Shown: positions 207 to 45,201 of the stretch, in pieces
How the letters are laid out: each line of letters opens with the position of its first letter
Position numbering within the stretch: the stretch's first letter is position 1
Source of the DNA: Candidatus Falkowbacteria bacterium
Lineage (GTDB): Bacteria > Patescibacteriota > Patescibacteriia > CAIXNZ01
Direction: 5' to 3'
DNA length: 64,000 nucleotides
NCBI GenBank assembly: GCA_963774955.1
Contig: CAVZGV010000006.1
Coordinates: 8,354 to 72,353, forward strand
The notes under the pieces: model-generated
The model's input: the letters and a program-made list of their open reading frames with translations, nothing else
Databases searched by the model: none
Told to the model about the DNA's origin: nothing
Program-made: the position numbers and the translations under genes

Positions 207-692
207 TTATTTAATTTCAATTTTTACTTCATCACCGACTTTAAAATTGTTCTTTTCAGCCGCACCGCCGTTTAGTTCCAGGACATAATTAACTTCGCTG
301 TCAGAACGGTAAAGAGGCAGGTTAGCTTCATCAACCGTCGCTACAGGCACATTAGCCTGAATACCGATAATCTTATTATCATCGATCCAAATCATATCTA
401 AAGGAAATTGCATGTCTTTCATCCAGAAAGATCGGTATCTTTTATCAGGAAAAACAAAAAGCATGCCGGAATTTTGCTTTAAACTCTTACGATTTGAAAG
501 TCCGGCGATTAATTGTTCAGGGGTTTTGGCAAGCTCAACATTTATGGTTTTGCCATTAATAATTACCTTGCCTTTTTCCAAGCCGGAGGTAAAATATCCG
601 GGATTAGTCAAGATTATTACGGCTATTACCACGAAAATAAAAACCAGTAACGCTGTAATTATTAAGATTGTATTTAACTTAGATTTAGCCAT
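207..692 (-). CDS. DUF192 family protein (COG1430-like), N-terminal TM anchor
   Basis: 161 aa. It has an N-terminal hydrophobic helix followed by a DUF192-like core (…LFVFPDKRYRSFWMKDMQFPLDMIWID…VLELNGG…). Confidence 0.6.
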   Translation of the reverse strand: MAKSKLNTILIITALLVFIFVVIAVIILTNPGYFTSGLEKGKVIINGKTINVELAKTPEQLIAGLSNRKSLKQNSGMLFVFPDKRYRSFWMKDMQFPLDMIWIDDNKIIGIQANVPVATVDEANLPLYRSDSEVNYVLELNGGAAEKNNFKVGDEVKIEIK

Positions 693-695
693 ATT

Positions 696-1790
696 TTATA
701 TACTTTTAGACTGTTGATTTTTCTGTTTATATATAATAACAAGGATTGCGGCTAAAATCAACATAAATACTGCCAGGGCTAATAAAGCCAGCAATTTCCC
801 AAAGGTTTGTAAAAAGAGAGCAAATGACCCGAATAAAGCGGTTAAACAATATAAAAACACGACTGCCTGTCGATGTGATAATCCTATATCAAGTAGCCGA
901 AAATGTAAATGCTTACGGTCAGCCAGGCTGATTTTACGATAATAAATCAGACGGCGTAAAATGACCCAGACAACATCCAGAATGGGTACGCCCATGATTA
1001 AAAGCGCTGTTGCCACCTTTGACCCGGAAATAATAGCCAAGATACCCAACATTAACCCGGCCAGCAAACTGCCGCCTTCACCCAGAAAAATCCTGGCTGG
1101 ATGGAAATTAAGCAGTAAAAATCCGGCAAAAGCCCCGGCTAAAATAATGGCTATCAAGGCGGTATTAAACTGCGCCACTTCCTTATTTATAGCCACAGCA
1201 AAAATTATTAATGAGCCAATGACGGTAATTCCGGAGACTAAGCCGTCAAGCCCGTCCAGTAATTTCGTGGTATACATCATACCCATTAACCAAATCAGCG
1301 TAAATAAATCAGCGAATAAAGTCACCTTATAAGGAATTCCTTGAAACCAAAAAAGTATAAATTGCCAGTTATTGAAACTGATAATGCCGCCAAACGGATT
1401 TCTGATATGGCTGATGCCAATGCCACTGGCAACAATAACAATAGCGGCTAAAATCGGAAATATTATTTGGGATTTTGGTTGCCAATGATATTTATCGTCT
1501 AAAAAACCACCGATAATAATAAGCAGGCCGGCCAGGATGATCCCGACTATAAATTTGGGCTGAATAAAATCATAAATTATAAAATCCGTAAAATAGCTGT
1601 AAAAAACCAAAACCGAGGCAAAACTAAAAAAAACCGCCAGACCGCCCAGCAAAGGCATTGGGGTTTTATGGATCTTTCTCTCGCCAATCGGCTGATCAAC
1701 AATTTTAAAATATAAGGCAATTTTCCTGACCAACACAGTCAAAATCGCAGAGAGAATAAAAGTAATGACAAAAGCTAATAAATAATTCAT
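696..1790 (-). CDS. Glycosyltransferase family 4 polyprenyl-phosphate sugar-1-phosphate transferase (MraY/WecA/TagO family)
   Basis: 364 aa polytopic membrane protein. It carries DDxxD-like (FLDDKYH) and LDGLDGL motifs typical of MraY/WecA-family transferases. Confidence 0.7.
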   Translation of the reverse strand: MNYLLAFVITFILSAILTVLVRKIALYFKIVDQPIGERKIHKTPMPLLGGLAVFFSFASVLVFYSYFTDFIIYDFIQPKFIVGIILAGLLIIIGGFLDDKYHWQPKSQIIFPILAAIVIVASGIGISHIRNPFGGIISFNNWQFILFWFQGIPYKVTLFADLFTLIWLMGMMYTTKLLDGLDGLVSGITVIGSLIIFAVAINKEVAQFNTALIAIILAGAFAGFLLLNFHPARIFLGEGGSLLAGLMLGILAIISGSKVATALLIMGVPILDVVWVILRRLIYYRKISLADRKHLHFRLLDIGLSHRQAVVFLYCLTALFGSFALFLQTFGKLLALLALAVFMLILAAILVIIYKQKNQQSKSI

Positions 1791-1793: not shown

Positions 1794-4559
1794 TTATAAT
1801 TCTCTGGCTTTTTCCACTCTAATTACTCCCCCTTTTTCCAAGATGGCCACATCGCGGCGGCCGATTTTACCGGTTATTAAATAATTAGCCAAAGCATTGT
1901 CCACATGATCCTGAATAGCCCGACGCAAGGGTCTGGCTCCGTATTGAGGATCAAACCCGATCTGAGCCAATTCTCTGACGGCCTCTTCAGTAGCCTGAAA
2001 ATTTATACCTTTGGCTTCCATGGCTTGGGCTACTCTGGCCAGCATTAAGCCGGTTATTTTAATGACTTCTTCAAGACCCAACGGTTTGAAAATTATTATA
2101 TTATCAAATCTATTTATAAATTCCGGTTTGAAATACTGTTTTAGCTCAGTTTCTAAAAGCTGACGCTTTATGGCCTCAACCGTTAACCCGGCCGCCAGTT
2201 GCTGCTGGATAAAATTCGTTTGGGCGTTGGAAGTGGCAATCAAAATTACATTGGTAAAATCAATAGTCCTGCCGGATGAATCTGTCAGCCGTCCGTCATC
2301 CATAACCTGTAAAAAAAGATTCAAAATATCAGGATGAGCTTTTTCCAATTCATCTAAAAGTACGATGCAATAAGGCTTTTTCCTGACTGCTTCGGTTAAA
2401 ATACCACCGCCTCCGGAACCGGCATATCCGGGCGGAGCTCCAATCAACCGGTTAACAGCCGAGGCTTCCTGATATTCAGACATATCAACTCTAACCATAT
2501 TCTCCTCATTGCCGAAATAAACTTCGGCAATAGTTTTGGCTAATTCTGTTTTACCGACACCGGTCGGTCCTAAAAATAATAAATTAGCAATCGGTCTGGT
2601 TGTTTCACGTAATTCGGCCCTGGCCCGTCTCAAGCTGTTAGCCACGGCAGAAACAGCCTCTTCCTGGTCAATCATGCGCTCATGAATTATCTCTTCCAGT
2701 TTAAGCAATTTTTCCGATTCACCTTCTGTAATTTGAGTAACTTTCATGCCGATTTTTTCAGACATCAAGGTCGCCACATCATTGCCTGTGACCAAACAAT
2801 TGGCACCTTTGGTTTTCCTGGCCCAAACTGCAACTTCTTCCAATAAAGTAATGGCCTTGTAAGGCAAAAATTGGTCGTGGATAAAACGATCAGTCAATTT
2901 AACAGCTGATTCAAGCGCATCATAGGTTAAAAAAACATTATTCTTATTTTCAATATAACCGGCCTTACCTTCAATAATCTGAATGGCACCGTTTAATTCC
3001 GGTTCCTTAATTTCAATCTTTTTAATTATATTTCCCAAATTACTCCTCTCGATATAACTCGTATAATTGGCTGAAGTGCTGCCGCTGATTAAAATAAATA
3101 AATTTTTTGACAAAGCTTCGGCTAAAACCTCTATTAAACCGCTGCCACCGCTCATGGCTATTAAATCATGAATATTGTCAATATATAAAATGACATTGCC
3201 GGCGCGCGCTATTTCGTTAAAACAGATATAAAGTCTTTCCTGAACCTGGCTGATACTTGCACCTGCCACTAATTTTGGAATGCTCAAGCTTACCAGGCGC
3301 TTATCCTGCAAAAAATCCGGCAAATCATCGGCAATCATTTTTTGCGCCAGCCCCTCAATTATTGCTGTTTTACCTACACCCGGCTCCCCGACCATAATTA
3401 CTGCCTTGATGCTACTGCCTTCCAAAACACGATATATTTCGGAAAATTCCTGATCGCGATCAACTGAAATGTCCAAATACCCCTGTTTGGCTAACATAGT
3501 CAAATCTTCGGAAAACTGATTTAAAAGCGGAGTTTGAACTGCGGTCATGGCCCGATCAAGGCCGGTCTTGGATTTCAGCTTAGAACTTGTTCGATAAAGC
3601 TGCCATTGTTGCTTTAATTTACGCTGAATTCTAAACCAAACAATGACGTTATCAATTTTTTCCGGAGTAATTCCGATATCCATGAATACTTCCATTATAT
3701 ACTCATCATTTCTAACAGACTCATAAAGGATATCCAAGGTTTCAACTACTTCCAGATGATTTATATAAGCCTGACGATAAGCTTTGATCATAATCTTCCT
3801 GGCTTCGGTGGCAAATACTGTTTCAGTCTCGCTTTGAGGATAACGGGCAGCTAGTCGGCTGATTTTTGCCGATAAATCATTAAGGTCAATGCCCAAACGG
3901 ATGAAAACATTCTGAGCTTTGCCTGAAAGCAGTAAGGCTGCAATCAAAAAATGGACTGGGGCTACTTCTAAGGCTTTATGGCTATAAGCCAGATCATAAG
4001 CCTTCTCAACTATTTTCAAAGCCTCTTCGGAAAAAGTCTTGCTAATGTCAATTTTATACTTATGACTAATACCTTTGACAGATTGCCAATCAACCGGGGG
4101 CGGTGCCAGCAGGCTCAAATCACCTTCGGCTTGATATTTTTTGGCGACAACTTTTACTTTCCGGTCGTTTTTCAAGGAATTAAAATATATGATAAACAAA
4201 TCGAAAAATAACGAGAGCCAGAAATAAAAATGATATTGATTTGGACTTTGCCAATAATTTAAAGATAATATCTGGTAATAATCAAAATTAGTCAGGTAAA
4301 AAGAATAAACCAAGCTAGTAATACCGCCTAAGCCAATAACCAATAAAATCACTTTTATTATAAAATCAATAACCCGTTCCACTTTGTATAATTTAAGATG
4401 AGGATAGTCAATGACTCTATCCCAAAATAAAATATATGAGTCCAAACTGCCGATAATTCCCCGGCCGTCACAAACCTGACACTTTTTAGCGGCTAAGTGC
4501 CCAACCCCGTTACAATTGGAACAAATTAGAAACTGCAAATTTTCTTTGTCATTTGCCAT
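1794..4559 (-). CDS. ClpC/ClpA-like double-AAA+ unfoldase with unusual N-terminal Cys4 zinc ribbon and two TM helices
   Basis: 921 aa. D1 Walker A is GEPGVGKTAI and D2 Walker A is GPTGVGKTELAK. Clp_N-like repeats lie upstream of D1. The first ~130 aa contain CSNC…CQVC plus two hydrophobic helices. Confidence 0.8.
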   Translation of the reverse strand: MANDKENLQFLICSNCNGVGHLAAKKCQVCDGRGIIGSLDSYILFWDRVIDYPHLKLYKVERVIDFIIKVILLVIGLGGITSLVYSFYLTNFDYYQILSLNYWQSPNQYHFYFWLSLFFDLFIIYFNSLKNDRKVKVVAKKYQAEGDLSLLAPPPVDWQSVKGISHKYKIDISKTFSEEALKIVEKAYDLAYSHKALEVAPVHFLIAALLLSGKAQNVFIRLGIDLNDLSAKISRLAARYPQSETETVFATEARKIMIKAYRQAYINHLEVVETLDILYESVRNDEYIMEVFMDIGITPEKIDNVIVWFRIQRKLKQQWQLYRTSSKLKSKTGLDRAMTAVQTPLLNQFSEDLTMLAKQGYLDISVDRDQEFSEIYRVLEGSSIKAVIMVGEPGVGKTAIIEGLAQKMIADDLPDFLQDKRLVSLSIPKLVAGASISQVQERLYICFNEIARAGNVILYIDNIHDLIAMSGGSGLIEVLAEALSKNLFILISGSTSANYTSYIERSNLGNIIKKIEIKEPELNGAIQIIEGKAGYIENKNNVFLTYDALESAVKLTDRFIHDQFLPYKAITLLEEVAVWARKTKGANCLVTGNDVATLMSEKIGMKVTQITEGESEKLLKLEEIIHERMIDQEEAVSAVANSLRRARAELRETTRPIANLLFLGPTGVGKTELAKTIAEVYFGNEENMVRVDMSEYQEASAVNRLIGAPPGYAGSGGGGILTEAVRKKPYCIVLLDELEKAHPDILNLFLQVMDDGRLTDSSGRTIDFTNVILIATSNAQTNFIQQQLAAGLTVEAIKRQLLETELKQYFKPEFINRFDNIIIFKPLGLEEVIKITGLMLARVAQAMEAKGINFQATEEAVRELAQIGFDPQYGARPLRRAIQDHVDNALANYLITGKIGRRDVAILEKGGVIRVEKAREL

Positions 4560-4564: not shown

Positions 4565-4939
4565 TTAGGTTAAATTACCAAAAGATAATACAAGCATATA
4601 GAGAATAAGTATGGGTAAAACCAGCCAAAATATATAGAAAACCAGAACTAAAATGATTATGCCCAGTAAAGCCAAGCCCTTGAATATAATCTGAAATATT
4701 CTCAGAAAAAAACTGATTGCCCGGCCCGCAAAATCTGTCTGACCAAACATGGGCACAAACAAATTTTTCAGCCAGATAGAAAAACCAAGAGTCAGATCAA
4801 AATCCCGAATCATACCTAGCCCGCCTTTTAAAACTTTCAGTAAGCCTTGCCCGTACCACCACAACGGAAAATATAAAAAATTCCTAATTTCAGCAATTAG
4901 AAGTAAAATTGTTATTTTGCCTAAACTCGCATTGTTCAT
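4565..4939 (-). CDS. Small polytopic membrane protein, unknown function (start taken at internal Met; ORF could extend to 5065)
   Basis: Hydrophobic helices run throughout. The longer ORF overlaps the RBS-supported small gene at 4998..5237, so the internal start MNNASLGK is preferred. Confidence 0.4.
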   Translation of the reverse strand: MNNASLGKITILLLIAEIRNFLYFPLWWYGQGLLKVLKGGLGMIRDFDLTLGFSIWLKNLFVPMFGQTDFAGRAISFFLRIFQIIFKGLALLGIIILVLVFYIFWLVLPILILYMLVLSFGNLT

Positions 4940-4997
4940 AGTATTATTTATTAATATAATTTTACCATATTTTGGCAGAAAATTAAACAGGGCCTGT

Positions 4998-5237
4998 TTA
5001 TACAGGCCCGGAATTTGTCTCTGGGGAATTTGTCGCCTTGACCTCAAGAAAATTGAGTAAAACATTCAATTCCGATTCTGACGTCCCCAAGTCCGCCCAG
5101 GAAAAGTCACCGCCGTTAACCCGCAATTTAATATTGTTTATCATGATTAAAGCGGCCTGATAATTAAAGGCCTTATTGCGTAAACAGTTGATAGCGCCCT
5201 GACAAGCTGTAATTTTCCGCTGTTTATCATCATCCAC
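4998..5237 (-). CDS. Hypothetical 79-aa protein (GTG start)
   Basis: AAGGAGGTGA lies 6-7 nt upstream of a GTG start. The product is MDDDKQRKITACQGAINCL…. Confidence 0.4.
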   Translation of the reverse strand: MDDDKQRKITACQGAINCLRNKAFNYQAALIMINNIKLRVNGGDFSWADLGTSESELNVLLNFLEVKATNSPETNSGPV

Positions 5238-11118: not shown

Positions 11119-11592
11119 TCAGCTATTTTTTCCTATGGTTATATTAGGATTACGATTATAAAAAGGGCTGATATATTTACCTCCTTTTGCTCTATAAATT
11201 TTACTTAAACCCAACTTAACTAATTCATCATTATCTGTCAAGCCTTTTTTATTCATTATCCCGATTACTGGTATTTTCAAAGTATAAGCTAAAGTATTGG
11301 CCACAGTACAGGTAATTCTTAGCGAAGTAAACGGGCCAGGGCCGGTTACGGCCATGATTCCAGTCAAATCAATGTTTTTAACTTTATTAGCCTTTAAAAT
11401 CTGCTCAATAGATTTTAACAAATATTCAGTCACTTTATAATCCCCGGATTGGCTGAGCTTATCTAAAATCTTATTTCCTGAAATCAAAAAAACATCCAAG
11501 TCCTTATCCTTAGATGTATTTAAAAACAAGATGTATTGTTTATTCTTTTTCTTCGTCATCCAAGACAGTAATTTTATTAAATATTTCATCAA
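11119..11592 (-). CDS. tsaB: tRNA t6A biosynthesis protein TsaB (YeaZ-like, short)
   Basis: Contains a GPGPFTSLRI motif in a Kae1/YeaZ-like fold. The true start may be an internal Met near 11559. Confidence 0.55.
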   Translation of the reverse strand: MMKYLIKLLSWMTKKKNKQYILFLNTSKDKDLDVFLISGNKILDKLSQSGDYKVTEYLLKSIEQILKANKVKNIDLTGIMAVTGPGPFTSLRITCTVANTLAYTLKIPVIGIMNKKGLTDNDELVKLGLSKIYRAKGGKYISPFYNRNPNITIGKNS

Positions 11593-12160
11593 TCATGACA
11601 ATCTTATCGGCGTCCAAGATGGAATACAAAAATTTATCAGCCACACTGCGTCTATAATCAAATTCTTCTTTACTTAAAAAGGTATAATTAATTTCGCGTC
11701 TGAAATCCTTTTCAAAATTCTTGACAATTTTCTCAAATTTTTTCTTATTCAAATTACCGACGATTAACATATCAATCGGTAAATCCTTATCCCCGACAAA
11801 AAAACCGGTTAAAGCCAAGAAAAATACTTTGCCCGTCTTTTTCAAGGAAGTAGCGAAATTCTTTTCCAGAAGAAATTGGGCTTTTTGAAATGTTGATTTT
11901 AGTTCAGGGAAAATAATAAACTTAGTATTAACCTGATAAAATTTACACTTGGAATTCTGAGAGGTCTCTTCGGCTTTAAGCGTGACTATTTCCTTGATTA
12001 CTCCCAATTCTTCCAAGTTCTGTAATTCACGCCTAACCGCATTAATTTGTGAATTCAAAGCCCTGGTCAGTTCTCTGACAAAATACTTACCCTCCGGATT
12101 GCTTAAAAACACATGCAAAAGCTTGCATCTTGTTTGTGAACCAAATAATTGTTCAAGCAT
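11540..12160 (-). CDS. Winged-helix transcriptional regulator-like protein with C-terminal extension
   Basis: The N-terminal wHTH resembles the ArsR/MarR class (…LLHVFLSNPEGKYFVRELTRALNSQINAVRRELQNLEELGVI…). Confidence 0.4.
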   Translation of the reverse strand: MLEQLFGSQTRCKLLHVFLSNPEGKYFVRELTRALNSQINAVRRELQNLEELGVIKEIVTLKAEETSQNSKCKFYQVNTKFIIFPELKSTFQKAQFLLEKNFATSLKKTGKVFFLALTGFFVGDKDLPIDMLIVGNLNKKKFEKIVKNFEKDFRREINYTFLSKEEFDYRRSVADKFLYSILDADKIVMIDEIFNKITVLDDEEKE

Positions 12161-12285: not shown

Positions 12286-14532
12286 ATGGCTAATATCCTT
12301 AGTCAATTTTCTCATGTTTTCATTCACTATTATTCAAACAAGACGTCATCGGCTTGTAAGCTTTTTATTAGTGAACCGACGCAAAATCAGGAAAGACTTT
12401 TAGGCCGTCTGTTTGGAATTGTTGAGATTAATACCCCAAGCCGAGAAAACAGCCAGCTAATTAGTCAAATCATCGGTAATTTGGAAGAAGCCTATTACAG
12501 TCAGGCTGAGAATGAAGACCTTGATTTTACCGCCTGCCTGGAAAATTCACTAAAAGAAGTAAACCAACGTTTCAACGAAATGATCCGCAACAGGCAAATT
12601 ACCTTGGTCGGGAATTTGAATGAACAGACCATTAAAGAAAAGATCAATCTGGGTATCGGTGTGCTCAAAGAAAATCAGCTTTTCCTATCCTATCTTAATA
12701 ATATTAACATCTACTTGATTCACAAAACCAAGCAAGATTACAAAATAATTGATATTAAAAAAGTCGCTCAGGAAGGAAACAGTGCCGAAGCAACTCAGGC
12801 TACGAACTTATTTGCGAATATTATTTCAGGGGAATTAAATCCTCCTGATTTTTTAATTTTAGCCAACGGCAGTTTTTTAAATTACATAACCACTGAACGT
12901 GTTCAAAAAATTGTCACCTCTTTACCGATTCATAAAGCAGCTGAATATTTTAAAAATTCTTTACTCCAATATGAGGGTTATAATTTTGCTTCCATAATTA
13001 TAAAAAACAGCCCTAGCCAAGCAGAAGAAGCCAAGGAACCGGCATCTTTAACCTCAATTACAGAATTGAATTTTACCGAATCAACTACTGAAAAACTGCT
13101 GGCTCCGTCGATTTTAAACATAATCAAAAATTTTCTGGCTAAAATATATACTCTGTTAAAACGTTCTTCCACAGTCAAGAAAATTAACAACAAAACTGAA
13201 AAAGCCAGCTCAGAATCAACTGAAACTGTGAGTGTGCCGCAAGATAAAGAACCAAAAGCTTCCGTCACAACAGTGAGCGCTTTCGATAATTATTTCAGAA
13301 GTGTTAAAAGAGGTCTTAAAAGTATAGGCCAAAAATTTTCAAACAGCCAACTAATTGAAAATCTGAAAACTTTCTTGCGCATCAAGTCAGCCTATCTCGG
13401 ACATTTACTCCGAAAAATACCGAACTTCAGTAAATTTTTATTACTGTTTGCAAGCATTTTAATAATTTTATTTGTTTTTAGCGTTACTTATTTCAAACAG
13501 AAACAAGGTCAGACTATCTCCCAAAAAGAATACCAGGAATTGATCACCCAAATTCAGGAAAAGAAAAATCAATCAGAATCTGACCTGATTTATGGCGATG
13601 AGACCAAAGCCAGGACCAGTATAGGTGAAGCTCAGGTTTTATTAGCCTCACTACCGATTGATTCCAAGAGAGAAAAAGAAGTTCACGATAGCCTAAATCA
13701 AGAGCTTATGACCGTGGTGGCCAAACTGCGCAAAATTACTATTATTAATGATCCGCTCTTGGTTGCCGACCTCTCGGCACAACAGGATAATAACATAGAT
13801 ATCCAAAATATTGTATTACAAAATAATAATATTTTTGCTTTTGATTCTATCAATAATAACAGCTACACGATAAACATTGAAAGCCGCAATATCCAAAAAA
13901 ACCTGACAAATCTTAATGATATTGGCAAAATCGTCAAAGCCAGAAAAATAGCTGACAAAATTTTACTTTACCATGATAAGAACGGTTTCGTAGAATATAA
14001 TGATAATAAATATTCCCCTTTCTCGGTTGCTTTAAACCCGAATGCAAGTATTGCGGATTTTGCCGATTATAACAGCAGATTATATGTATTGGATATCGGT
14101 AATAATCAAATTATTCGACAGCCTCAAACTGATAACGGTTATGGCCCCGGAATAAACTGGTTCAAGACTGCGCAGGATATAAAAGATATTATAGCCTTAT
14201 CAATAGATACCAACATTTGGCTGTTAGATAAGAAAGGCGCAGTTTTAAAATTCACCAAGGGTATTCTCCAAGCTTTTGAGCTTAAAAATGTTGAGCCGAT
14301 CCTGGAGGCACCGACTAAATTATTTACTAATGACCAAACTAATTTTATTTATATTTTAGAACCAAAAAATAAAAGAATTGTGGTTATTGATAAATCCGGA
14401 GATCTGATTATCCAGTATTATAGCGATACCTTTAGTAATCCCCAGGATTTTGCAGTCTTGGAAAGCGAAAAGAAAATCTTTATTTCCAGTGATAATAAAA
14501 TATACTCTTTTGAGCTGACACATCTGAAATAA
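12286..14532 (+). CDS. Large hypothetical protein with one internal TM helix
   Basis: 748 aa. The only strong hydrophobic segment is LLLFASILIILFVFSVTYF. I cannot assign a family. Confidence 0.5.
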   Translation: MANILSQFSHVFIHYYSNKTSSACKLFISEPTQNQERLLGRLFGIVEINTPSRENSQLISQIIGNLEEAYYSQAENEDLDFTACLENSLKEVNQRFNEMIRNRQITLVGNLNEQTIKEKINLGIGVLKENQLFLSYLNNINIYLIHKTKQDYKIIDIKKVAQEGNSAEATQATNLFANIISGELNPPDFLILANGSFLNYITTERVQKIVTSLPIHKAAEYFKNSLLQYEGYNFASIIIKNSPSQAEEAKEPASLTSITELNFTESTTEKLLAPSILNIIKNFLAKIYTLLKRSSTVKKINNKTEKASSESTETVSVPQDKEPKASVTTVSAFDNYFRSVKRGLKSIGQKFSNSQLIENLKTFLRIKSAYLGHLLRKIPNFSKFLLLFASILIILFVFSVTYFKQKQGQTISQKEYQELITQIQEKKNQSESDLIYGDETKARTSIGEAQVLLASLPIDSKREKEVHDSLNQELMTVVAKLRKITIINDPLLVADLSAQQDNNIDIQNIVLQNNNIFAFDSINNNSYTINIESRNIQKNLTNLNDIGKIVKARKIADKILLYHDKNGFVEYNDNKYSPFSVALNPNASIADFADYNSRLYVLDIGNNQIIRQPQTDNGYGPGINWFKTAQDIKDIIALSIDTNIWLLDKKGAVLKFTKGILQAFELKNVEPILEAPTKLFTNDQTNFIYILEPKNKRIVVIDKSGDLIIQYYSDTFSNPQDFAVLESEKKIFISSDNKIYSFELTHLK

Positions 14533-14833: not shown

Positions 14834-14961
14834 GTTTGCCTCCTTTGACCTTGAGAATTGAATCATTAAAGCTTTGATGAAAACAATACCAATATAATAG
14901 CATGTTTTTAAAAATTTGTCAATGTCTTTATCCACCTTAGACGCTACAAAGGGAATAAAAC

Positions 14962-14990
14962 AAAAAACCCCGCAAAGCAGGGTTTTTTGG
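14962..14990. terminator. Intrinsic terminator downstream of rplL
   Basis: AAAAAACCCCGCAAAGCAGGGTTTTTTGG. Confidence 0.7.
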
Positions 14991-15001
14991 TATTACGAAG
15001 T

Positions 15002-15400
15002 TTATTTCAAATTCACACTGGCGCCGACTTCTACTAATTTCTTTCTGATTTCTTCGGCTTCTTCTTTTTTCACGCCTGCTTTAATAACTTTAGGTGCGGC
15101 ATCAACCATATCCTTGGCTTCTTTCAAGCCTAAACCAGTTACATCTTTGACAATTTTGATCACGCCGATCTTATTATCACCTACGGCAGACAATTCAATA
15201 TCGAATTCTGACTTAGCAGGTGCTGCATCAGCAGCAGCAGCTGGACCAGCCATCATGGCCATAGGAGCAGCAGCGCTAACGCCGAATTTGTCTTCCAGGA
15301 CTTTGACTAATTCAGCCAGGTCCAAAACAGACATTTTTTCAATTTCCGCAACCAAATCCTTGAATTTAGCCGGGACTTCAACTTTCTTTTCTTCTGACAT
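15002..15400 (-). CDS. rplL: 50S ribosomal protein L7/L12
   Basis: [33 protein letters not shown]… Ala-rich hinge …KEAKDMVD…[20 protein letters not shown]. Confidence 0.95.
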
Positions 15401-15452
15401 ATTTTTGAAGTTAATTAGTTTATTAATTTATTGGTTAATTAGTTATATTTAA

Positions 15453-25988: not shown

Positions 25989-26567
25989 CTAATTCCTTTT
26001 CTTGATTTCCAAATCATACATTATTTCCTCAATTTTCCTGAGATTATTCTTGGCCTGATCGAATTTCGGACGTAAAGGACCGAGCATATTAAACTTTATT
26101 AATTCCTTAACCACATCTTCAATTGTCTGCTCACAGGCTGCCACTTCCTCATATCTGTGTCTGGTCGCTAAAAAAATGGCCTTTCTAACCAGTTCACCGG
26201 TAAAATCACATAATCCCCCCAAATAGCTGTCACAATCGATTTTAAGCCCTGCTATAGCCGTAATTTTGCCTGTTTTTAGGTATTGATAGAATAACTTAGC
26301 TTCCACATACTCTTCCATGGCCGCCAAATAAGAACCTTCGTATTCCAAACCGTCTTCGACTTTAATTTTTGTCGCCAAGTACTTAAATAACTTATCGCAC
26401 TCTTCAAGACACTTTTCCGCTTCAGCGATATTATCGCGATGCAAGGCAAAAATAGCCATTTTAGCAAATTTCAAAATGTCATTGCTGTGTTTAATAATGA
26501 TCCTGCGGTTGATATCGTAAGAATCATACTCTTTCTTCAGCTTGGTAAAAAATTTTTGATCTAACAT
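25989..26567 (-). CDS. Hypothetical all-alpha protein (possibly translin-like)
   Basis: 192 aa helical. The family call is tentative. Confidence 0.35.
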   Translation of the reverse strand: MLDQKFFTKLKKEYDSYDINRRIIIKHSNDILKFAKMAIFALHRDNIAEAEKCLEECDKLFKYLATKIKVEDGLEYEGSYLAAMEEYVEAKLFYQYLKTGKITAIAGLKIDCDSYLGGLCDFTGELVRKAIFLATRHRYEEVAACEQTIEDVVKELIKFNMLGPLRPKFDQAKNNLRKIEEIMYDLEIKKRN

Positions 26568-34699: not shown

Positions 34700-35959
<1,260 letters not shown>

Positions 35960-38392: not shown

Positions 38393-39106
38393 CTAATTCT
38401 CATCATTATCTACTTTTTCCCATTTACCGTTTTTATATTCGGCTATCCAAATATCTTTTCCAGGTTTATATTTACTGATTATGGTATGCAACGGCCCCGA
38501 AACCTTACCTGAACCTCCCAGCCTATAGTCGTAATGATAATCAAGACCAACAACCCCCAATTCTAGACTGATCAAATCTCCTCGTTCATTAATAACTTTT
38601 TGTATTACAAAAAAGTCTTCAGGTTCTACTTCTGGGCAAAATTGATAAAACTTATCCATTATTATTTGTTCACTCTGAATAGGCCCGTCAGATTCTCGAG
38701 CCTGAAAATCTTCATTAGCAATGACCTGCGATTTTTTATTTTCCGGCAGGGCAATGATTATTTTCTGTTCTTCTAACATTTTCAAAATATTATTTCTAAC
38801 CAAACTATTATCAACATAATCTTTGTCTGTCTCTTCTGCCAGCTCTTTGATTTTTTCTGACTGTTTATCTTTCAATCTTTTATCCTTTTTCCAAACTGAC
38901 ACTAAATCTTTTAACTCCTGATAAATTTTAACAGCTTTAAGCGTATCACCCACCTTTTCAGCTTTGACCGCCTCATCAATCGAGTCATTGAGTATTTTAT
39001 GCTGTTCCGGCGTCAAATCCATTTCCTTAACCCGACCCAAAACCTGCCTGGCCATGGCTAAGACCGGTGGTTCTTGTTTTTCTGGTTGTTCTAAAAATTT
39101 AGTCAT
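38393..39106 (-). CDS. Paralog family member P1 (divergent N-module + short C-terminal beta-module)
   Basis: N-module …VLAMARQVLGRVKEMDLTPEQHKILNDSIDEA… The C-terminus is …GDLISLELGVVGLDYHYDY…. Confidence 0.6.
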   Translation of the reverse strand: MTKFLEQPEKQEPPVLAMARQVLGRVKEMDLTPEQHKILNDSIDEAVKAEKVGDTLKAVKIYQELKDLVSVWKKDKRLKDKQSEKIKELAEETDKDYVDNSLVRNNILKMLEEQKIIIALPENKKSQVIANEDFQARESDGPIQSEQIIMDKFYQFCPEVEPEDFFVIQKVINERGDLISLELGVVGLDYHYDYRLGGSGKVSGPLHTIISKYKPGKDIWIAEYKNGKWEKVDNDEN

Positions 39107-39117
39107 AACAATAATTC

Positions 39118-39882
39118 TTATACTATTTGTATAGATTTACCGGTCTTTGTCAGCCAACACCTCTGAGCATCATTCCAACCAACTATTATTTTGGAAAAAC
39201 CAATTGTAGCCGGCCTAACTTCAATATTTAAATCTTGCAGGTCAATAAAAGTCTCATCCGAGAAATGATTGCCTTTGTGATTTTCACCGGCTGCATGATA
39301 ACCATAACTGATTTCTGGATCACCGACTTTGCCAATCTCTAAGTTAATAATTCTCCCCTTTTTATCTTTCGTGCCGTCATAAACAAAAAGATCTTCGGCA
39401 TTAACTTCTTCGTCTGCCGCGAGAATTACCCTAAGAATTTGTTCGGCAGTAAATTGACGTTCTAATGACAGATTATAAACTCCTTCATAAGGGATAATTA
39501 TTTCATCTGCTGTCTTTTCCAGATCAATTATTTGCTGCCTCATGGCTAAAACTAAATCCTGCCGCTTTTCTTCATTCAAGGAATCATCAACAATTGCTTC
39601 TGCTATCGCCTTATTGACCTTTTCAATTTGCCTTTCTTTTAATCCCTCATAATTCGGCCTTGCCGTTATGACCTCTAAATATTTTTTTAATTGATTGTAA
39701 ATATTAATGGCTTTAGACAAGTTCTTTGATTGTTCATAATCTCGAGCTTCCTCAATCATGGCCATAACTTTTTTATTCTGTTCCGGCGTCAGATCCATTT
39801 CCCTGACCAGACCTAAAGCAGTCCTGGCCATGGCCAGGGATTGAACTTCAGGACTATTTGATTGGGGTTTTTCTTTGGGCAT
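39118..39882 (-). CDS. Paralog P2 (N-module + short beta-module)
   Basis: MPKEKPQSNSPEVQSLAMARTALGLVREMDLTPEQNKKVMAMIEEA… and a C-terminal …GRIINLEIGKVGDPEISYGYH…. Confidence 0.65.
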   Translation of the reverse strand: MPKEKPQSNSPEVQSLAMARTALGLVREMDLTPEQNKKVMAMIEEARDYEQSKNLSKAINIYNQLKKYLEVITARPNYEGLKERQIEKVNKAIAEAIVDDSLNEEKRQDLVLAMRQQIIDLEKTADEIIIPYEGVYNLSLERQFTAEQILRVILAADEEVNAEDLFVYDGTKDKKGRIINLEIGKVGDPEISYGYHAAGENHKGNHFSDETFIDLQDLNIEVRPATIGFSKIIVGWNDAQRCWLTKTGKSIQIV

Positions 39883-39910
39883 AAATTAAGATAAAACTTA
39901 TATCCATTAT

Positions 39911-40690
39911 TTACTGTAACGGAAACTCCCAACTATTTGAGTTTTCGTCATATTTAGCTATAACTTGGCCGGATTTTTGTCCACGATTATTGGAATACAC
40001 AATTCTTATAATGTTTGTATCCCCGCGGTCAATTGCCACATTTGTCTTCAAACCAGCCAAACTGAAAAAATATTCAACATCAGGAATACCGGCTAATCCC
40101 AATTTGAGCGTCAACAACTTCCCGTCTTTATCTTCTGTTCTTTCTTGTAAGAATAAAGTTTCTGCTGTACTTTCTTTTAAAGATGTAGTCTCTTCTATTG
40201 AATCCTCATTTTTTGAAATAACAGCGGCTATTTCTTTCTCAGAAAAAAATATTGCAGTATCCAGGTGGATATCTTCTTCAGCTATAACTTTTGTCTTCCC
40301 CTGACTCGGTGTCATTATAATATTTTTCTGTTCTTCCAGCGCCTCCCACAGTACAAGTTTATTAATAGACCATCGGGCTCTGGGCATAGACTCTATTTCA
40401 TTCATTTCAGCATCAATTATTTCCAGCTGTTTTTTTATTTTTTCGGGATTCGCCTCAATTCTATCAGTAGGTACCTCGTTTATCTTCTGCAGATATTTTT
40501 TCAGCTCCAAATAAAAGTTTAAAGCTTTACTTTGATTGCCCCCATTTTCTGCAGCCGTAGCTTCCTCAATCATAGCCATGACTTTTTCTTTTTGTTCCGG
40601 CGTCAGCTCCATTTCTTTCACCCGACCCAAAGCCTGCCTAGCCATTTCCAGCTCTTGTTTTTTATCAATTTTTGGCTGTTCTCGTTTCAT
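39911..40690 (-). CDS. Paralog P3 (N-module + short beta-module)
   Basis: …ELEMARQALGRVKEMELTPEQKEKVMAMIEEA… and a C-terminal …GKLLTLKLGLAGIPDVEYFFSL…. Confidence 0.65.
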   Translation of the reverse strand: MKREQPKIDKKQELEMARQALGRVKEMELTPEQKEKVMAMIEEATAAENGGNQSKALNFYLELKKYLQKINEVPTDRIEANPEKIKKQLEIIDAEMNEIESMPRARWSINKLVLWEALEEQKNIIMTPSQGKTKVIAEEDIHLDTAIFFSEKEIAAVISKNEDSIEETTSLKESTAETLFLQERTEDKDGKLLTLKLGLAGIPDVEYFFSLAGLKTNVAIDRGDTNIIRIVYSNNRGQKSGQVIAKYDENSNSWEFPLQ

Positions 40691-40710
40691 AATTTATAAC
40701 TTTATACTTA

Positions 40711-42174
40711 TTATATTACCTCCTCATCTTCTTCCTCATCAGTAGCTTCTGTATCAAATACCTTACATCCGATAGGCACCTGCTGATGAATTTTTTCAAG
40801 TTCACTGTCTGATAACTTATTATTATAGCAGGTCACTCTTTCCAAATTGATTAAATTGCTTAAATCCGGCAGAAATTCCAATTCATTGTTTGGACAATTT
40901 AATTCTTTAAGCTTAGTCAACTCTGATAAATCCGGCAATTTTTTAAGCTTATTTTTTCCGCAATGTAATTGCACCAAATTTTTCAAAGCTGAAAGTTTTG
41001 GCAAACTTTCCAGGTGATTACCAATGCAGTTCAAATTCTTAAGATTCTTAAAACCGCTTAAATCCGGCAGACTTGCTAATTCATTGTCTGCGCAAACTAA
41101 AAGCTCTAACTCCGCTAAATGGCTGATATCCGGCATTACAGTCAAATTATTATGAGTGCACCATAAAATTCTAAGCTTAGTTAAAGCGCTAATATCCGGT
41201 ATTAGAGGACAATAATCACAAGTCAAATCTTCAAGATTTTTCAGCTGGCCAAGATCAGGAGCAACCTTAAAAGGATTTTTTGAAATTTCTATTGCTTTTA
41301 ACTGGGTTAAGGCGCTTAAATCGGGCAATTCAGCGAGATTATTACTCCCAATGTCTAAGCTTTCCAGGCCGGTAAAGACTCTTAGATCAGGCAAGCTTGC
41401 CAGTAAGTTACCGTGCAGGTCTAAGCTTTTAAGCTTAGTCAAGGCGCTTAAATCCGGAATGGTAATGAGGCCTTTTTTCACAACAGTATTAATATCTTCA
41501 TCTTTAGTTAACGCAAACAAATTAATCTTCAACCAGGTGATATTACCTTCGGAATCAGTATTAATTCCTGCTTCAATTATTTCCCAAATTTCATCACTGT
41601 CAGTACGTAATTCAGTTTTCAATTTAATATCAACAAGTTTTTCTTGTATCTCATATAAAACACAAAATTGCCGATATAAAACCCTGTATTCGCCTAATTC
41701 CATCTGCAATTTTGGTAACTTTGTCAGAAAATCACCCGATTCAATATTTTTATCGTATAATTTTATTAGTATAATATTGCCATCTTCATCGACTTCCAGC
41801 CCATTATCCAATATTATATTTACTGCCTCCTTTTCTGTCATACCTATCGAAGTTTTCACCATATTTGCTGCCAACTCCTGTAAAACCTGGACTTGCGGAT
41901 ATAAAATCTGATAGCCGCCGTAATCTACTAAAGTTGCCTCCATTTTACTCGCCATTTCATTTTCTTTTAGGGATCTGAGAAGCTCATTATATACTCTTAA
42001 AGCGCCGGCTAAATTTTTATTTTTCTCTAGTGCCTTGGCCTCGTCTATCATGGCCATTACTTTTTCCTTTTCGTCAGGAGTCAGCTCCATTTCCTTAACC
42101 CGACCCAAAGTACGCCTGGCCATGGCCAGGGACTGAGCTTCTTGATTGTTTAATTGCGGTTTTTCCTTAGGCAT
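40711..42174 (-). CDS. Paralog P4: N-module + leucine-rich repeats (~22-aa LPDLSxLxxLxxLxCxxNxLxx) + acidic tail
   Basis: MPKEKPQLNNQEAQSLAMARRTLGRVKEMELTPDEKEKVMAMIDEA… followed by at least 12 LRRs and ending …TDEEEDEEVI. Confidence 0.7.
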   Translation of the reverse strand: MPKEKPQLNNQEAQSLAMARRTLGRVKEMELTPDEKEKVMAMIDEAKALEKNKNLAGALRVYNELLRSLKENEMASKMEATLVDYGGYQILYPQVQVLQELAANMVKTSIGMTEKEAVNIILDNGLEVDEDGNIILIKLYDKNIESGDFLTKLPKLQMELGEYRVLYRQFCVLYEIQEKLVDIKLKTELRTDSDEIWEIIEAGINTDSEGNITWLKINLFALTKDEDINTVVKKGLITIPDLSALTKLKSLDLHGNLLASLPDLRVFTGLESLDIGSNNLAELPDLSALTQLKAIEISKNPFKVAPDLGQLKNLEDLTCDYCPLIPDISALTKLRILWCTHNNLTVMPDISHLAELELLVCADNELASLPDLSGFKNLKNLNCIGNHLESLPKLSALKNLVQLHCGKNKLKKLPDLSELTKLKELNCPNNELEFLPDLSNLINLERVTCYNNKLSDSELEKIHQQVPIGCKVFDTEATDEEEDEEVI

Positions 42175-42200
42175 ATATAATTTTAGACAATTTTAACCCA

Positions 42201-43325
42201 CTAAACTTTACCGTCAGCTTTTAATTTATTCCAGACTCCAATCATGCTTGGCGGACCGACCAGACAATGGATCAGTTCAGCCACCTCGCCTACAGACAAT
42301 TGGTCGGGATCTTTTTTTGCCTGCAAACGCCATTGCCAAGCTTTGTCGCTATTGACGTAAGCCAGACTATGCAATATCTCAACAGGATATCGTGTAATCT
42401 CCTTATTACGCTTATTTATCGGATATTCTTGCAAATATGTTGACCTGAATTTCCAGGCATCTTCGCTATCCAAGCCAACCAAACTGGTAAGTATTTCCTG
42501 CGGATTTTTCCTTTCTGCCAACATCTGACGCCGTATTTGCCAGGCTCTCTCGCTGTCCAAACCGGCTAAACTAGCTATTACCGCTTTGGGTAAAGACCCT
42601 ACATATTCGTTTCTTATTTTCCAGGCTTGCGGCGTGTCCAAACCGGCCAATCCCTCAATAATTTTACTTTTAATATTCTCACTGCAGGCGTCACTTTCTA
42701 AATAATCATTCCTATGGTTCCAAGCCTGGGGTGAATCGATTCCCGCCAAACTCATGGCAAATTTTATATCATATGAATCGGGAGAAGAAAATAATTCTTT
42801 TCGTTTTAACCAAGCTTTTTCACTATCCAAACCAGCCAGACTATTTGCATAATCAAGAGAGCCTTCCAATTTGTTTCGCAATTCCCAGGATTCCTCATCA
42901 TCCAGACCAACCAGACTTTTTATAACAGATCTTCTATCAATCTCCTCGTCACTTTTGGCATATTTCCTTCTGATTTCCCAAGCTTGTTCACTCTCAAATC
43001 CCATAATTTTTGATAATACACTATATTGGGACAATTTATATTTAAGCTGTAAATCAGCCAAAAAAGAAATCACCCGCTGTTCATATTCATAGGGCATTTC
43101 CGGGCTTTTTATTTTTTCCAAATATATTTTTAATTTATTGTAGGCATTAAGCGCTTTAGACAGCTGTTTAACCTTTTCATATCCCTTAGCTTCATCAATC
43201 ATAGCCATGACTTTTCCCTTTTCCTCCGGTGTCAAATCCATTTCCTTGACCCGACCCAAAGTCTGCCTGGCCATGTCCAGGGCTTGAGATTCAGGACTAT
43301 TTGATTGAAGTTTTTCTTTGGGCAT
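42201..43325 (-). CDS. Paralog P5: N-module + ~32-aa ARM/HEAT-like repeats (SLAGLDSExAWxxRxxxL)
   Basis: MPKEKLQSNSPESQALDMARQTLGRVKEMDLTPEEKGKVMAMIDEA… followed by about 8 repeats. Confidence 0.7.
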   Translation of the reverse strand: MPKEKLQSNSPESQALDMARQTLGRVKEMDLTPEEKGKVMAMIDEAKGYEKVKQLSKALNAYNKLKIYLEKIKSPEMPYEYEQRVISFLADLQLKYKLSQYSVLSKIMGFESEQAWEIRRKYAKSDEEIDRRSVIKSLVGLDDEESWELRNKLEGSLDYANSLAGLDSEKAWLKRKELFSSPDSYDIKFAMSLAGIDSPQAWNHRNDYLESDACSENIKSKIIEGLAGLDTPQAWKIRNEYVGSLPKAVIASLAGLDSERAWQIRRQMLAERKNPQEILTSLVGLDSEDAWKFRSTYLQEYPINKRNKEITRYPVEILHSLAYVNSDKAWQWRLQAKKDPDQLSVGEVAELIHCLVGPPSMIGVWNKLKADGKV

Positions 43326-43330
43326 ATTTA

Positions 43331-44452
43331 TTAGTAACTACTTTCTTCTTCATCCTTTCTTGCTTTGCGCACACCGGCCATAAGATAATCGCCATTGACT
43401 CCCCTAGCAACAGCATCTTTATCTGCGCCTTGTTTTAAAAATTTTTTTCTCATTTGCCAGGCCCGCTCTGAATCCAGTCCGGCTAAACCTCTAGCAATAT
43501 AATCTATACTTGTAAATTCCCATAATAATTTTTGCCTCATTTGCCAGGCTTGCTCGGAATCCAATCCGGCTAAGCCTAGAGCAACATAATAACTTATATC
43601 TGGGACGTCTTGCTCTAATAATTCTTTCCTCATTTGCCAGGCTTGCTCGGAATCCAATCCGGCTAAGCCTGAAGCAATACCTTCACCTGCATCTTTCTCT
43701 AAAAATTCGTTTCTCATTTGCCAGGCTTGTTCTGAATCCAATCCGGCTAAACCCTCAGCAACAGCATCTTTATCTGCGCCTTGTTCTAATAACTCTTTTC
43801 TCATTTGCCAGGCTTGCTCTGAATCCAATCCGGCTAAGCCTCTAGCAACATATTCTTTTCTTGCGCCTTGTTTTAATAACTCTTTTCTCATTTGCCAGGC
43901 TCGCTCGGAATCCAGTCCGGCTAAACCTTGAGCAACATAACCTTTTGTTGTGCCTTGTTCTAATAATTCATTTCTCATTTGCCAGGCCTGTTCTGAATCC
44001 AGTCCGGCTAAGCCTAGAGCAACAGCATCTTTATCTGCATCTGCGCCTTGTTCTAATAACTCTTTTCTCATTTTCCAGGCTTGCTCGGAATCCAGTCCGG
44101 CTAAGCCTTGAGCAACATATTCTTTTCTTGCGCCTTGTTTTAATAACTCTTTAAAATAATCAAGGGGCTTAGCCTCTAATTTTTCTTTTTCAATTCTTAA
44201 TTTAATATCTTCTTTTTCTTTTTCAATTCTTAATTTAATATCTTCCAAATATTTTAATAATTGGTTATAAACATTCAGGGCTTTAGACAATTGCTTTGAA
44301 TTTTCGTAACTTGTGGCCTGATCAATCATGGCCATCATTTTTTCATGCTGTTCCGGCGTCAGATTCATCTCTTTCACCCGACGCAAAGACTGCCTGGCCA
44401 TGTTCAGGGATTGCGATTCAGAATCTCCGCTAGGTAAATTTTTATTCTTCAT
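43331..44452 (-). CDS. Paralog P6: N-module + about 9 near-identical 29-30-aa tandem repeats (GLAGLDSEQAWQMRKELLEQGADKDAVA)
   Basis: …SQSLNMARQSLRRVKEMNLTPEQHEKMMAMIDQA… The DNA repeat unit is about 87-90 bp and highly identical. Confidence 0.7.
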   Translation of the reverse strand: MKNKNLPSGDSESQSLNMARQSLRRVKEMNLTPEQHEKMMAMIDQATSYENSKQLSKALNVYNQLLKYLEDIKLRIEKEKEDIKLRIEKEKLEAKPLDYFKELLKQGARKEYVAQGLAGLDSEQAWKMRKELLEQGADADKDAVALGLAGLDSEQAWQMRNELLEQGTTKGYVAQGLAGLDSERAWQMRKELLKQGARKEYVARGLAGLDSEQAWQMRKELLEQGADKDAVAEGLAGLDSEQAWQMRNEFLEKDAGEGIASGLAGLDSEQAWQMRKELLEQDVPDISYYVALGLAGLDSEQAWQMRQKLLWEFTSIDYIARGLAGLDSERAWQMRKKFLKQGADKDAVARGVNGDYLMAGVRKARKDEEESSY

Positions 44453-44461
44453 ATAAAATCA

Positions 44462-45196: not shown

Positions 45197-45201
45197 ATAT
45201 T

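Follow-up and report, generated by a model that had tools for sequence, protein, structure and literature searches.

In a 64,000-nucleotide stretch of Candidatus Falkowbacteria DNA (assembly GCA_963774955.1, contig CAVZGV010000006.1, positions 8,354 to 72,353 of the forward strand; this whole stretch is called the window below), a complete gene on the minus strand (1794..4559 including the stop codon, with an ATG start) encodes a Clp/Hsp100 protein of 921 amino acids (aa), built, from the N-terminus on, of a Cys4 finger, a pair of hydrophobic helices, Clp_N, and the AAA+ modules D1 and D2. The analysis supported well the assignment of this protein to an undescribed, Patescibacteria-wide family of membrane-anchored Clp/Hsp100 proteins, the function of which we infer. 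With moderate confidence, we read the protein as a stand-alone membrane remodeller or extractor that would be independent of ClpP and DnaK, driven by D2, and joined by a small partner protein. Hsp100/Clp unfoldases are classically soluble machines, and it is FtsH that is usually credited with the quality control of bacterial membrane proteins. A full-text literature search found no description of a membrane-anchored Hsp100 protein or of this Clp family of the Candidate Phyla Radiation (CPR). In the databases the family members are labelled 'AAA family ATPase' or 'ClpC', labels that, judged by the sequences, wrongly imply ClpP-dependent proteolysis.

Domain layout, family extent and predicted membrane hairpin

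The Pfam matches of the Clp protein were AAA_2 (1e-61), AAA, ClpB_D2-small, and AAA_lid_9, and Clp_N scored 22.3 bits against a cut-off of 20.7 bits when residues 174–340 were scanned alone. Among the sequences of the PDB, ClpCs of B. subtilis and S. aureus were the top matches (6e-144), with ClpB at 5e-135, followed by ClpC1, ClpE, Hsp104, and ClpA. A full-length AlphaFold2 model, for which 92 family sequences served as input, had a mean predicted local distance difference test score (pLDDT) of 85.2, and its AAA core superposed on ClpC and ClpB protomers with template modelling scores of 0.80–0.86. Together these matches bore out a preliminary description of this DNA, which had recognized a Clp_N-like domain followed by two AAA+ modules.

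A search with the full-length sequence retrieved about 114 proteins of 870–945 aa (38–100% identity, approximately 100% coverage), all carrying names of Patescibacteria (Parcubacteria, Falkow-, and Uhrbacteria) save one labelled Bipolaricaulota. After this family the score fell from 576 to 491 bits, and the next matches were ordinary Firmicute ClpCs aligning over about 35% of the query. The conservation counts given below refer to 107 full-length homologues at 38–73% identity. An exhaustive profile search with the N-terminal module, covering 1.84 billion cluster representatives, matched 558 clusters (50% identity) at E ≤ 1e-3, of which 244 reached E ≤ 1e-10, and the module was located at the N-terminus every time. 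In the best 150 of the 558 matches, 4 were already known from the full-length search and 146 were new; the new representatives included 45 full-length proteins (≥840 aa), 81 colinear fragments, and a further 18 consisting of 16 colinear fragments with longer unaligned tails and 2 without a BLAST match, one of the two being an unrelated multi-finger protein. Because the profile matches recovered this Clp family, the N-terminal module is specific to it, and the family itself is apparently conserved and specific to Patescibacteria. The N-terminal extension to which the preliminary description had drawn attention recurred throughout the 107 full-length homologues and the 558 clusters, and 79 of the 107 also had the finger.

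The membrane anchor is preceded by a juxtamembrane motif (residues 42–66; 4362..4436, minus strand, as are all parts of this gene) that reads L-Y/F-W-G-K/R and continues into a basic amphipathic helix. Within it W46 was conserved in 93/107 and L44 in 80/107 homologues, and Lys or Arg was enriched at positions 48, 59, and 62. Transmembrane (TM) helix 1, residues 67–88 (4296..4361), had a Kyte–Doolittle maximum of 2.45, alignment columns almost free of charge, and small-residue positions at G76 and G79, the latter kept in 88/106 members. Segment counting on the Kyte–Doolittle scale was too noisy, the core helix of Clp_N also registering as hydrophobic, and hydrophobicity was judged instead by the alignment-anchored free energy (dG) on the Hessa scale, with the rest of the protein as the control. 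For TM1 the dG was -0.2 in the window protein, the median over the family was -2.0, and values below 1 kcal/mol were found in 97% of the members; on this sequence evidence TM1 can be taken as established as a membrane helix. A loop of approximately 20 aa (residues 89–109; 4233..4295), predicted to be extracytoplasmic, connects TM1 to TM2 and carries an F/Y-W pair, with F102 in 57 and W103 in 71 of about 105 sequences. TM2 (residues 110–127; 4179..4232) shows the pattern F113-W114-x-S116...D120...Y125-R126, in which F113 was conserved in 96/107, W114 in 81/107, D120 in 84/106, and Y125 in 93/107. Its hydrophobicity is marginal because of the conserved Asp. In 87% of the members TM2 was nevertheless more hydrophobic than every window of the remaining 750 aa or so, and the Firmicute ClpC references had no segment below a dG of +6, so nothing in them is comparable to the hairpin. 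AlphaFold2 predicted helices at residues 52–89, which include TM1, and 108–133 (pLDDT 84–93), and TM2 is likely to span the membrane in dependence on helix–helix partners. The linker from the hairpin to Clp_N (residues 128–171; 4047..4178), predicted to be cytoplasmic, is rich in Lys and Arg and was modelled with a pLDDT of 56–78.

In the family alignment Lys plus Arg residues averaged 4.8 ahead of TM1, 1.5 within the loop, and 5.2 behind TM2, a pattern that fits an N-in/C-in hairpin with a positive-inside signature. Since the ATPase needs the cytoplasm, an even number of membrane crossings is required, and the N-in/C-in hairpin is the sole topology that would place both the Cys4 finger and the ATPase rings in the cytoplasm. 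A single-pass topology with an extracytoplasmic AAA+ domain was rejected as impossible for an ATPase. As to the two TM helices originally proposed, TM1 proved to be strong and TM2 only marginal, though the positive-inside counts and the AlphaFold2 helices support the hairpin. A conserved two-helix hairpin would give the protein an FtsH-like topology, its motor lying against the cytoplasmic side of the membrane, in agreement with the membrane tethering suggested earlier.

The Cys4 finger (residues 9–36; 4452..4535) is predicted to be cytoplasmic and consists of two CxxCxGxG motifs. Its cysteines C13, C16, C27, and C30, which read CSNCNGVG...CQVCDGRG, were conserved in 84/85, 81/85, 85/92, and 89/95 of the homologues occupying the respective alignment columns. 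Gly18, 20, 32, and 34 of the finger were conserved across the family alignment, and AlphaFold2 predicted short beta strands within residues 9–45. The looser pattern CxxC...CxxC was found in the 79 finger-bearing homologues, and the strict paired CxxCxGxG in the window protein and in 52 of the 107. The profile matches of the finger were all weak and below the curated cut-offs: anti-TRAP RtpA at 7e-6, DnaJ_bact at 7.5e-4, Pfam DnaJ_CXXCXGXG at 1.2e-3, BSD2_CRD, and Anti-TRAP. With the Pfam DnaJ model (PF00684), which covers four repeats where the finger holds two, only profile positions 44–65 were matched, and the score was 19.5 bits (E 1.2e-3) versus a gathering threshold of 32.7. By its motifs the finger is of the DnaJ/anti-TRAP type and a putative zinc site. 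Its likeness to the DnaJ cysteine-rich domain, anti-TRAP (RtpA), and BSD2 lies in the two CxxCxGxG motifs making up one predicted Cys4 centre, whereas the DnaJ finger has two zinc centres. The Cys4 zinc ribbon of the preliminary description is thus real and conserved as a Cys4 pattern, and it is more specifically of the DnaJ/anti-TRAP CxxCxGxG kind. Family members without the finger, where they were not simply truncated, still kept the LYWGK motif and the hairpin; the finger is therefore accessory and the anchor universal.

Some observations could be taken to mean that the start codon was mis-called, that the N-terminal 170 residues are not translated, or that the hydrophobic segments are not membrane helices. 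No Shine–Dalgarno-like sequence was visible ahead of the clp ATG, TM2 is marginal on the Hessa scale, and a word-indexed search with the N-terminus alone came up empty. The empty search reflected a limit of the word index and not an absence, because the full-length and exhaustive profile searches recovered the same proteins. In the first 400 aa, Met occurs at positions 1, 257, 289, 293, 338, 355, and 389. An internal start just behind the TM region had been considered in the preliminary description, but residues 2–256 contain no in-frame Met, and the first one after residue 1, residue 257, falls within Clp_N. The stop codon of the preceding open reading frame (ORF) lies 5 nt before the clp ATG, a spacing that fits translational coupling. 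Moreover, the Cys and Gly residues, W46, F113, D120, and Y125 were kept down to 38% overall identity and in the 558 clusters, and the N-terminal helices were modelled with a pLDDT of 84–93 throughout. We consider an artefact of this kind extremely improbable.

Class assignment and the two AAA+ modules

The protein has the class-I Clp/Hsp100 layout of Clp_N, two AAA+ modules, and D2-small, and no peptidase domain was found among its Pfam or NCBIfam matches. It did not reach the cut-off of any of the NCBIfam subfamily models: ClpB (TIGR03346), the best NCBIfam model for D2, scored 577.6 bits against a cut-off of 1232.1; ClpA (TIGR02639), the alignment of which was continuous over query residues 177–899, scored 502.2 against 993.15; and ClpK, ClpG, and ClpV (TssH) scored 500.6 against 1900, 470.5 against 1900, and 464.3 against 885, respectively. 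By these membership tests it is a class-I Clp/Hsp100 protein that is none of ClpB, ClpA, ClpC, ClpE, ClpK, ClpG, or ClpV. Of the ClpC/ClpA type named in the preliminary description, the Clp/Hsp100 double-ring ATPase was retained and the subfamily was not, as no equivalog cut-off was reached and neither a ClpP loop nor an M-domain was found.

The motor was analyzed in an alignment of the 107 family members with six Firmicute ClpC references. The Clp_N domain (residues 172–327; 3579..4046) aligned to ClpC residues 6–150 and was all-helical in the AlphaFold2 model. In the D1 module (residues 345–590; 2790..3527), with the Walker A sequence GEPGVGKT, the P-loop G-x-x-G-x-GK[T/S] was retained and its Lys was present in 102/107 members. 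The D1 Walker B reads ID-N, and the column of the catalytic Glu held Asn in 76, Asp in 24, and Gly in 3 of the 107 sequences, and Glu never. The Arg-finger positions, ERRF in ClpC, read G-[N/S/Q]-[V/I/A]-L, and the pore loop was A-S/T-x-S/G-E-A in place of KYRGEFE of ClpC, so that the Tyr is gone. These columns indicate that D1 is a pseudo-ATPase family-wide, which has kept the P-loop but has neither the catalytic Glu nor the Arg fingers nor the Tyr of the pore loop. The D2 module with D2-small (residues 591–921; 1797..2789) has an intact ATPase site and the pore loop GYAG: Walker A GPTGVGKT and Walker B LDE (LDE-EKAH) were each found in 107/107 members, and GARPLRR was conserved. If D1 cannot hydrolyse ATP, the motor must be D2. 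The D2 pore loop of the window protein is GAPPGYAGS (residues 707–719, nt ~2403–2441) with the Tyr present, and in this loop Tyr or Phe is retained by 17 and lost by 7 of the 24 nearest sequences. Across the family the D2 pore Tyr has been lost repeatedly, even in relatives at 63–67% identity, beside an invariant D2 ATP site.

The M-domain is absent, query residues 577 and 578 being contiguous where ClpC has residues 400–458. AAA_lid_9 matched profile positions 4–62 of 104 only, alignments with ClpB broke into two stretches, and PF02151 (UVR) was listed for the Firmicute matches P0115–P0119 and for no clade member. Since the M-domain is absent, no coupling to DnaK is expected. At the position of the ClpP loop, KYVGFNVQD of ClpC aligned to LAAGLTVEA, followed by a 6-residue deletion. 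The tripeptide here is AGL in the window protein and [A/E/Q/K]-G-x in the family. A ClpP-binding IGF/LGF loop, which the preliminary description had proposed to look for in D2, is not conserved: hydrophobic-G-hydrophobic occurred in 3/107 members. Because the docking tripeptide is not conserved and the loop falls 6 residues short of its ClpC counterpart, the longer form of which all six Firmicute ClpC references have, use of ClpP is unlikely. In length and pattern this stretch resembles ClpB.

When compared with the known Hsp100 proteins, the window protein shares with ClpB/Hsp104 the Clp_N domain, two rings, D2-small, and a short stretch from sensor-1 to FxPEF without a ClpP-docking tripeptide. 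ClpB/Hsp104, however, have a coiled-coil M-domain and a competent D1 with the Walker-B Glu, Arg fingers, and pore Tyr, all of which the window protein lacks, and ClpB has neither the N-terminal zinc finger nor the TM hairpin, both of which are putatively carried by the window protein. ClpC and ClpE are the closest PDB matches in sequence and fold, and Clp_N and the N-D1 linker (TPxL..F..DLT) of the window protein are ClpC-like. Unlike ClpC, which is soluble and has a VGF ClpP loop and a UVR/M-domain, the window protein has no such loop or M-domain, a degenerate D1, and a predicted membrane anchor. With ClpA it has in common the order N-D1-D2 without an M-domain, whereas ClpA has an IGL loop and no TM hairpin, and the window protein has no IGL loop and a degenerate D1. 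ClpX and ClpE are known to carry a zinc finger at the N-terminus; both have a Cys4 element there, as the window protein does, the window finger being of the DnaJ CxxCxGxG kind. So far no Hsp100 protein is known to have a TM hairpin, a D1 that is inactive throughout its family, or an obligate partner in the membrane.

Outside the soluble Hsp100 proteins, FtsH (and archaeal LonB) is anchored by two N-terminal TM helices that keep its AAA+ ring on the cytoplasmic side of the membrane, a likeness by analogy only. FtsH joins a single classical AAA module to an M41 metalloprotease in one chain and has a large domain outside the cytoplasm, whereas the window protein has two rings of the Hsp100 type, an extracytoplasmic loop of approximately 20 aa, and no protease domain. 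Skd3 (human CLPB) is an Hsp100 relative with a single active D2-type ring and no M-domain that needs neither ClpP nor Hsp70. A motor working through D2 only would be the arrangement of Skd3/CLPB with its single D2-type ring, and the PDB sequence matches 7ttr and 8zr0 in this comparison covered D2 of the query only. Skd3 differs from the window protein in that ankyrin repeats replace Clp_N and D1 and that the processed protein is soluble in the intermembrane space. Msp1 (PMC12793716), ATAD1, Bcs1, and spastin also join a membrane anchor or hairpin at the N-terminus to an AAA+ ring that works on membrane proteins. These are single-ring, eukaryotic or mitochondrial proteins of another AAA clade, no homology emerged at the N-terminus, and the likeness is one of analogy; a further point of likeness to this group is that the gene beside clp encodes a protein of the tail-anchored type. 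By analogy, the window protein may work most like a stand-alone Hsp100 of the ClpB/Skd3 type and be sited like FtsH or Msp1.

The small partner protein and the gene neighbourhood

Directly upstream of clp lies a gene for a protein of 124 aa (4565..4939, minus strand), here called the partner, the stop codon of which precedes the clp ATG by 5 nt. Its homologues align from Met43 of a 166-aa ORF (4565..5065), which puts the start at 4939. The source annotation calls the partner as 82 aa (P0122), dropping the conserved YFPxWWY motif. No Pfam or NCBIfam match was found for the partner, a fold search against the PDB gave nothing better than E = 3.9, and all 42 of its database homologues were unnamed or 'hypothetical'. 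In the window the N-terminal helical domain contains the motifs YFPxWWYxxG and NxFxPMFGQxDxxGRxIS, and the homologues share YFPxWWYxxG, NxFxPM[F/Y]G[Q/V]xDxxG[R/V]xxS, and a hydrophobic C-terminal segment of about 35 aa. The AlphaFold2 model (pLDDT 90.6) consisted of helices at residues 6–51, 53–58, and 70–123; the C-terminal segment had a Hessa dG of -5.4, and the N-terminal helix was not membrane-like. Judged by this model, the partner looks like a protein of the tail-anchored type. When the columns of TM2 and the partner were taken by hmmalign, Q83 of the partner tracked D120 of the Clp protein (42/43 vs 13/30, p ~1e-7), but columns evidently linked to phylogeny scored equally, and the tracking does not count as evidence of contact. 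The invariant R80 and the R/K at position 87 of the partner were independent of Clp D120.

As an exact-sequence look-up gave no record of the window protein, seven loci with Clp homologues at 41–47% identity were inspected for context, and in 7/7 the partner adjoined the start of clp as a 116–131-aa ORF without a Pfam match, separated by a gap of 1–27 nt or overlapping by 13 nt; in L002 the annotated partner has 91 aa, its start having been placed internally. The adjacency of partner and clp held across differing contexts, namely tgt, mraZ-rsmH-ftsL, yidC, and an ATP-synthase operon. The partner motifs were also sought across GTDB, each species being represented by one genome, and at least 528 loci were found, so that relatives of the partner gene occur in no fewer than 528 species-level genomes of the Parcubacteria group. 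When loci with ≥3 kb downstream were taken, the coding region of a Clp D2 was found 1.4–2.4 kb downstream of the partner on the same strand in 68/69 GTDB loci. L080 was the only locus with 3 kb downstream and no clp gene. L079 carries a second, more distant Hsp100-like D2 (43% identity) near the partner at 262-1257 on the opposite strand, and its contig ends before the usual clp position. The group names among the partner loci listed were Parcubacteria, Falkow-, Magasanik-, Uhr-, and Buchananbacteria, and 'Patescibacteria group', the others being unrelated or generic. Loci L010, L012-L014, L016-L018, and others were titled 'uncultured Gammaproteobacteria bacterium' (metagenome-assembled genomes marked TPA_asm), and some were titled Planctomycetota or Acutalibacteraceae; these titles are probably placeholders or wrong labels.

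The partner, clp, and two further genes form a tight cluster on the minus strand, with gaps of 5 nt between partner and clp, 3 nt between clp and GT4, and 3 nt between GT4 and DUF192. The GT4 gene (696..1790, minus strand) encodes a polyprenyl-phosphate sugar-phosphate transferase of 364 aa that is MraY/WecA-like (Pfam Glycos_transf_4, 1.4e-26), and the NCBIfam models MraY_archaea, WecA, and MraY all remained below their cut-offs. Of the 48 loci that had a full flank, 44 contained a GT4 homologue downstream of clp in the same orientation, at a median gap of 29 nt. The last gene of the cluster (207..692, minus strand) encodes a 161-aa DUF192 protein (Pfam DUF192, 9e-32) with an N-terminal hydrophobic segment, and DUF192 was also downstream of clp in L001, L004, L005, and L007. 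A terminator-like G+C-rich hairpin with a T-rich tail (4990..5009, minus strand) between tgt and the partner is the probable 5' limit of the operon; it falls in the non-conserved N-terminal extension of ORF 4565..5065. A promoter scan, with 30 sites versus 20.7 expected, was uninformative. The clp loci were often found behind mraZ-rsmH-ftsL, and L004 also contained murC/murB. An origin from a mobile element or phage was rejected, since every genome examined had the locus amid core genes (tgt, rsmH, ftsL, GT4). No clpP was detected in the window by tblastn with a provisional E. coli ClpP query sequence or by Pfam scans of the ORFs of about 170–200 aa, and a ClpP-like sequence was likewise absent from 824 kb of 87 related loci, a negative result that the provisional query somewhat weakens. 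The earlier remark that no clpP is adjacent therefore holds for the window and for the 87 related loci.

Elsewhere in the window, a 192-aa ORF (25989-26567, minus strand) matched Translin (PF01997, 1.2e-24), a family known chiefly from eukaryotes and archaea. Nine paralogous ORFs of about 240–260 aa with 29–42% mutual identity form two clusters (38393-47136 and 54419-57684, both minus strand); two of the nine were scanned against Pfam and gave no match, and a leucine-rich repeat protein (40711-42174) lies among them. The enolase gene looks split (34700-35959, minus strand): a 256-aa ORF (35189-35959) contains Enolase_N and the first ~106 positions of Enolase_C, and the rest of the enolase may lie in ORF 34700-35152 as the result of a frameshift, a pseudogene, or an assembly error. 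Two overlapping genes at 50896-54349 (minus strand) encode a 484-aa ATPase of the AAA_5 (MoxR-like) kind and a 672-aa protein with a CobT_C/VWA domain. Four other ORFs had no Pfam match at E ≤ 1e-5: 11540-12160 (minus strand, 206 aa), 12286-14532 (plus strand, 748 aa), 14916-15452 (plus strand, 178 aa), and 47161-48846 (minus strand, 561 aa).

Possible modes of action

Hsp100 proteins form hexamers in which D1 and the N-domain are located at the substrate-entry face. In a hexamer of the window protein, twelve TM helices would hold the Clp_N/D1 entry face at the inner side of the membrane, and the N-terminal anchoring implies that this face would be pressed on the membrane, as in FtsH. D1 would serve assembly and nucleotide sensing, and D2 alone would do the work. 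Lacking both an M-domain and a ClpP loop, the enzyme should work on its own, being neither Hsp70-coupled nor proteolytic; without coupling to ClpP or DnaK, it would remodel or extract membrane-associated proteins. Its clients would probably be envelope or division biogenesis proteins, a suggestion that comes from the neighbours GT4, DUF192, mraZ-rsmH-ftsL, and, in L004, murC/murB. The finger and the small tail-anchored partner would be the substrate- or adaptor-binding parts.

Several observations weigh against this stand-alone remodeller. An aromatic residue was present in the D1 pore loop of only 5/107 members and in the D2 pore loop of only 36/106, most relatives having a shortened D2 loop from which the Tyr is gone. 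Such erosion of the pore-loop Tyr seems hard to reconcile with a conserved threading mechanism in the family. TM2 had a dG of +3.6 in the window protein and a family median of +3.2, which is marginal for a membrane helix. About a quarter of the family is without the finger, and judged from these sequences it cannot be essential to the core function. In addition, the streamlined genomes of the CPR can keep a gene order without functional coupling.

Because the pore-loop tyrosines are eroded in most members, we kept in consideration that the protein does not thread substrates at all, and that the ATP cycle of D2 is a conformational switch by which a regulator controls the partner, GT4, or both, and with them envelope precursors or division. 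The scarcity of pore aromatics in D2 (36/106) and D1 (5/107), next to a D2 nucleotide site that is invariant nonetheless, is what such a regulator would lead one to expect, as are the tight linkage to the partner (68/69) and GT4 (44/48) and the conserved cytoplasmic motif NxFxPMxGQxDxxGR of the partner. However, the window protein and 17/24 of the closest sequences retain Tyr or Phe in D2, the fold, D2-small, and Clp_N are those of true threading unfoldases, and all class-I Hsp100 proteins known to us thread their substrates. We regard a non-threading regulator as rather unlikely.

Two other proposals concern what the motor would do with a threaded protein. It is quite improbable that the protein is a protein-conducting motor, that is, an ATP-driven dislocase or translocase across the CPR membrane, in which the TM helices of the hexamer, twelve in all and perhaps joined by the anchors of six partner molecules, would form a polar, Asp-lined conduit aligned with the AAA+ pore. 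The Asp of TM2 in 84/106 members, the small-residue positions in TM1, a hairpin joined to the entry face of the ring in the AlphaFold2 model, and the long hydrophobic anchor of the partner are compatible with a conduit. The channel-like features are, however, limited to one Asp that is absent in about 20–40% of the members, the extracytoplasmic loop has just ~20 aa, and the pore loops are degenerate in many members. It is very improbable that the protein is a membrane-bound ATP-dependent protease which docks ClpP and degrades membrane proteins in an FtsH-like manner, the option of ClpP use raised in the preliminary description. The best sequence and structure matches do include the ClpP partners ClpC, ClpE, and ClpA, and AGL of the window protein recalls IGL of ClpA, but the family position is [A/E/Q/K]-G-x with hydrophobic-G-hydrophobic in 3/107 members, the loop is 6 residues shorter than that of ClpC and of ClpB length, the best D2 model is ClpB, and no clpP was found in the window or the 87 related loci. 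The option is poorly supported by the docking tripeptide and by the loci scanned. The remodeller or extractor driven by D2 and joined by the partner is the reading that we favour.

The degeneration of D1, the erosion of the pore Tyr, the linkage to the partner and GT4, and the breadth of the family had not been noticed in the preliminary description. A large family of membrane-anchored Hsp100 proteins widens the known uses of this scaffold. Should the conduit be real, the family would represent a new type of bacterial protein-moving machine on the Hsp100 scaffold, tied to envelope and division genes. The loss of the pore Tyr beside an invariant ATP site is a natural experiment that asks whether Hsp100 motors can do without the canonical gripping residues. 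The linkage to GT4 and mraZ-rsmH-ftsL offers a testable lead on the control of envelope and division in these ultra-small, largely uncultured bacteria.

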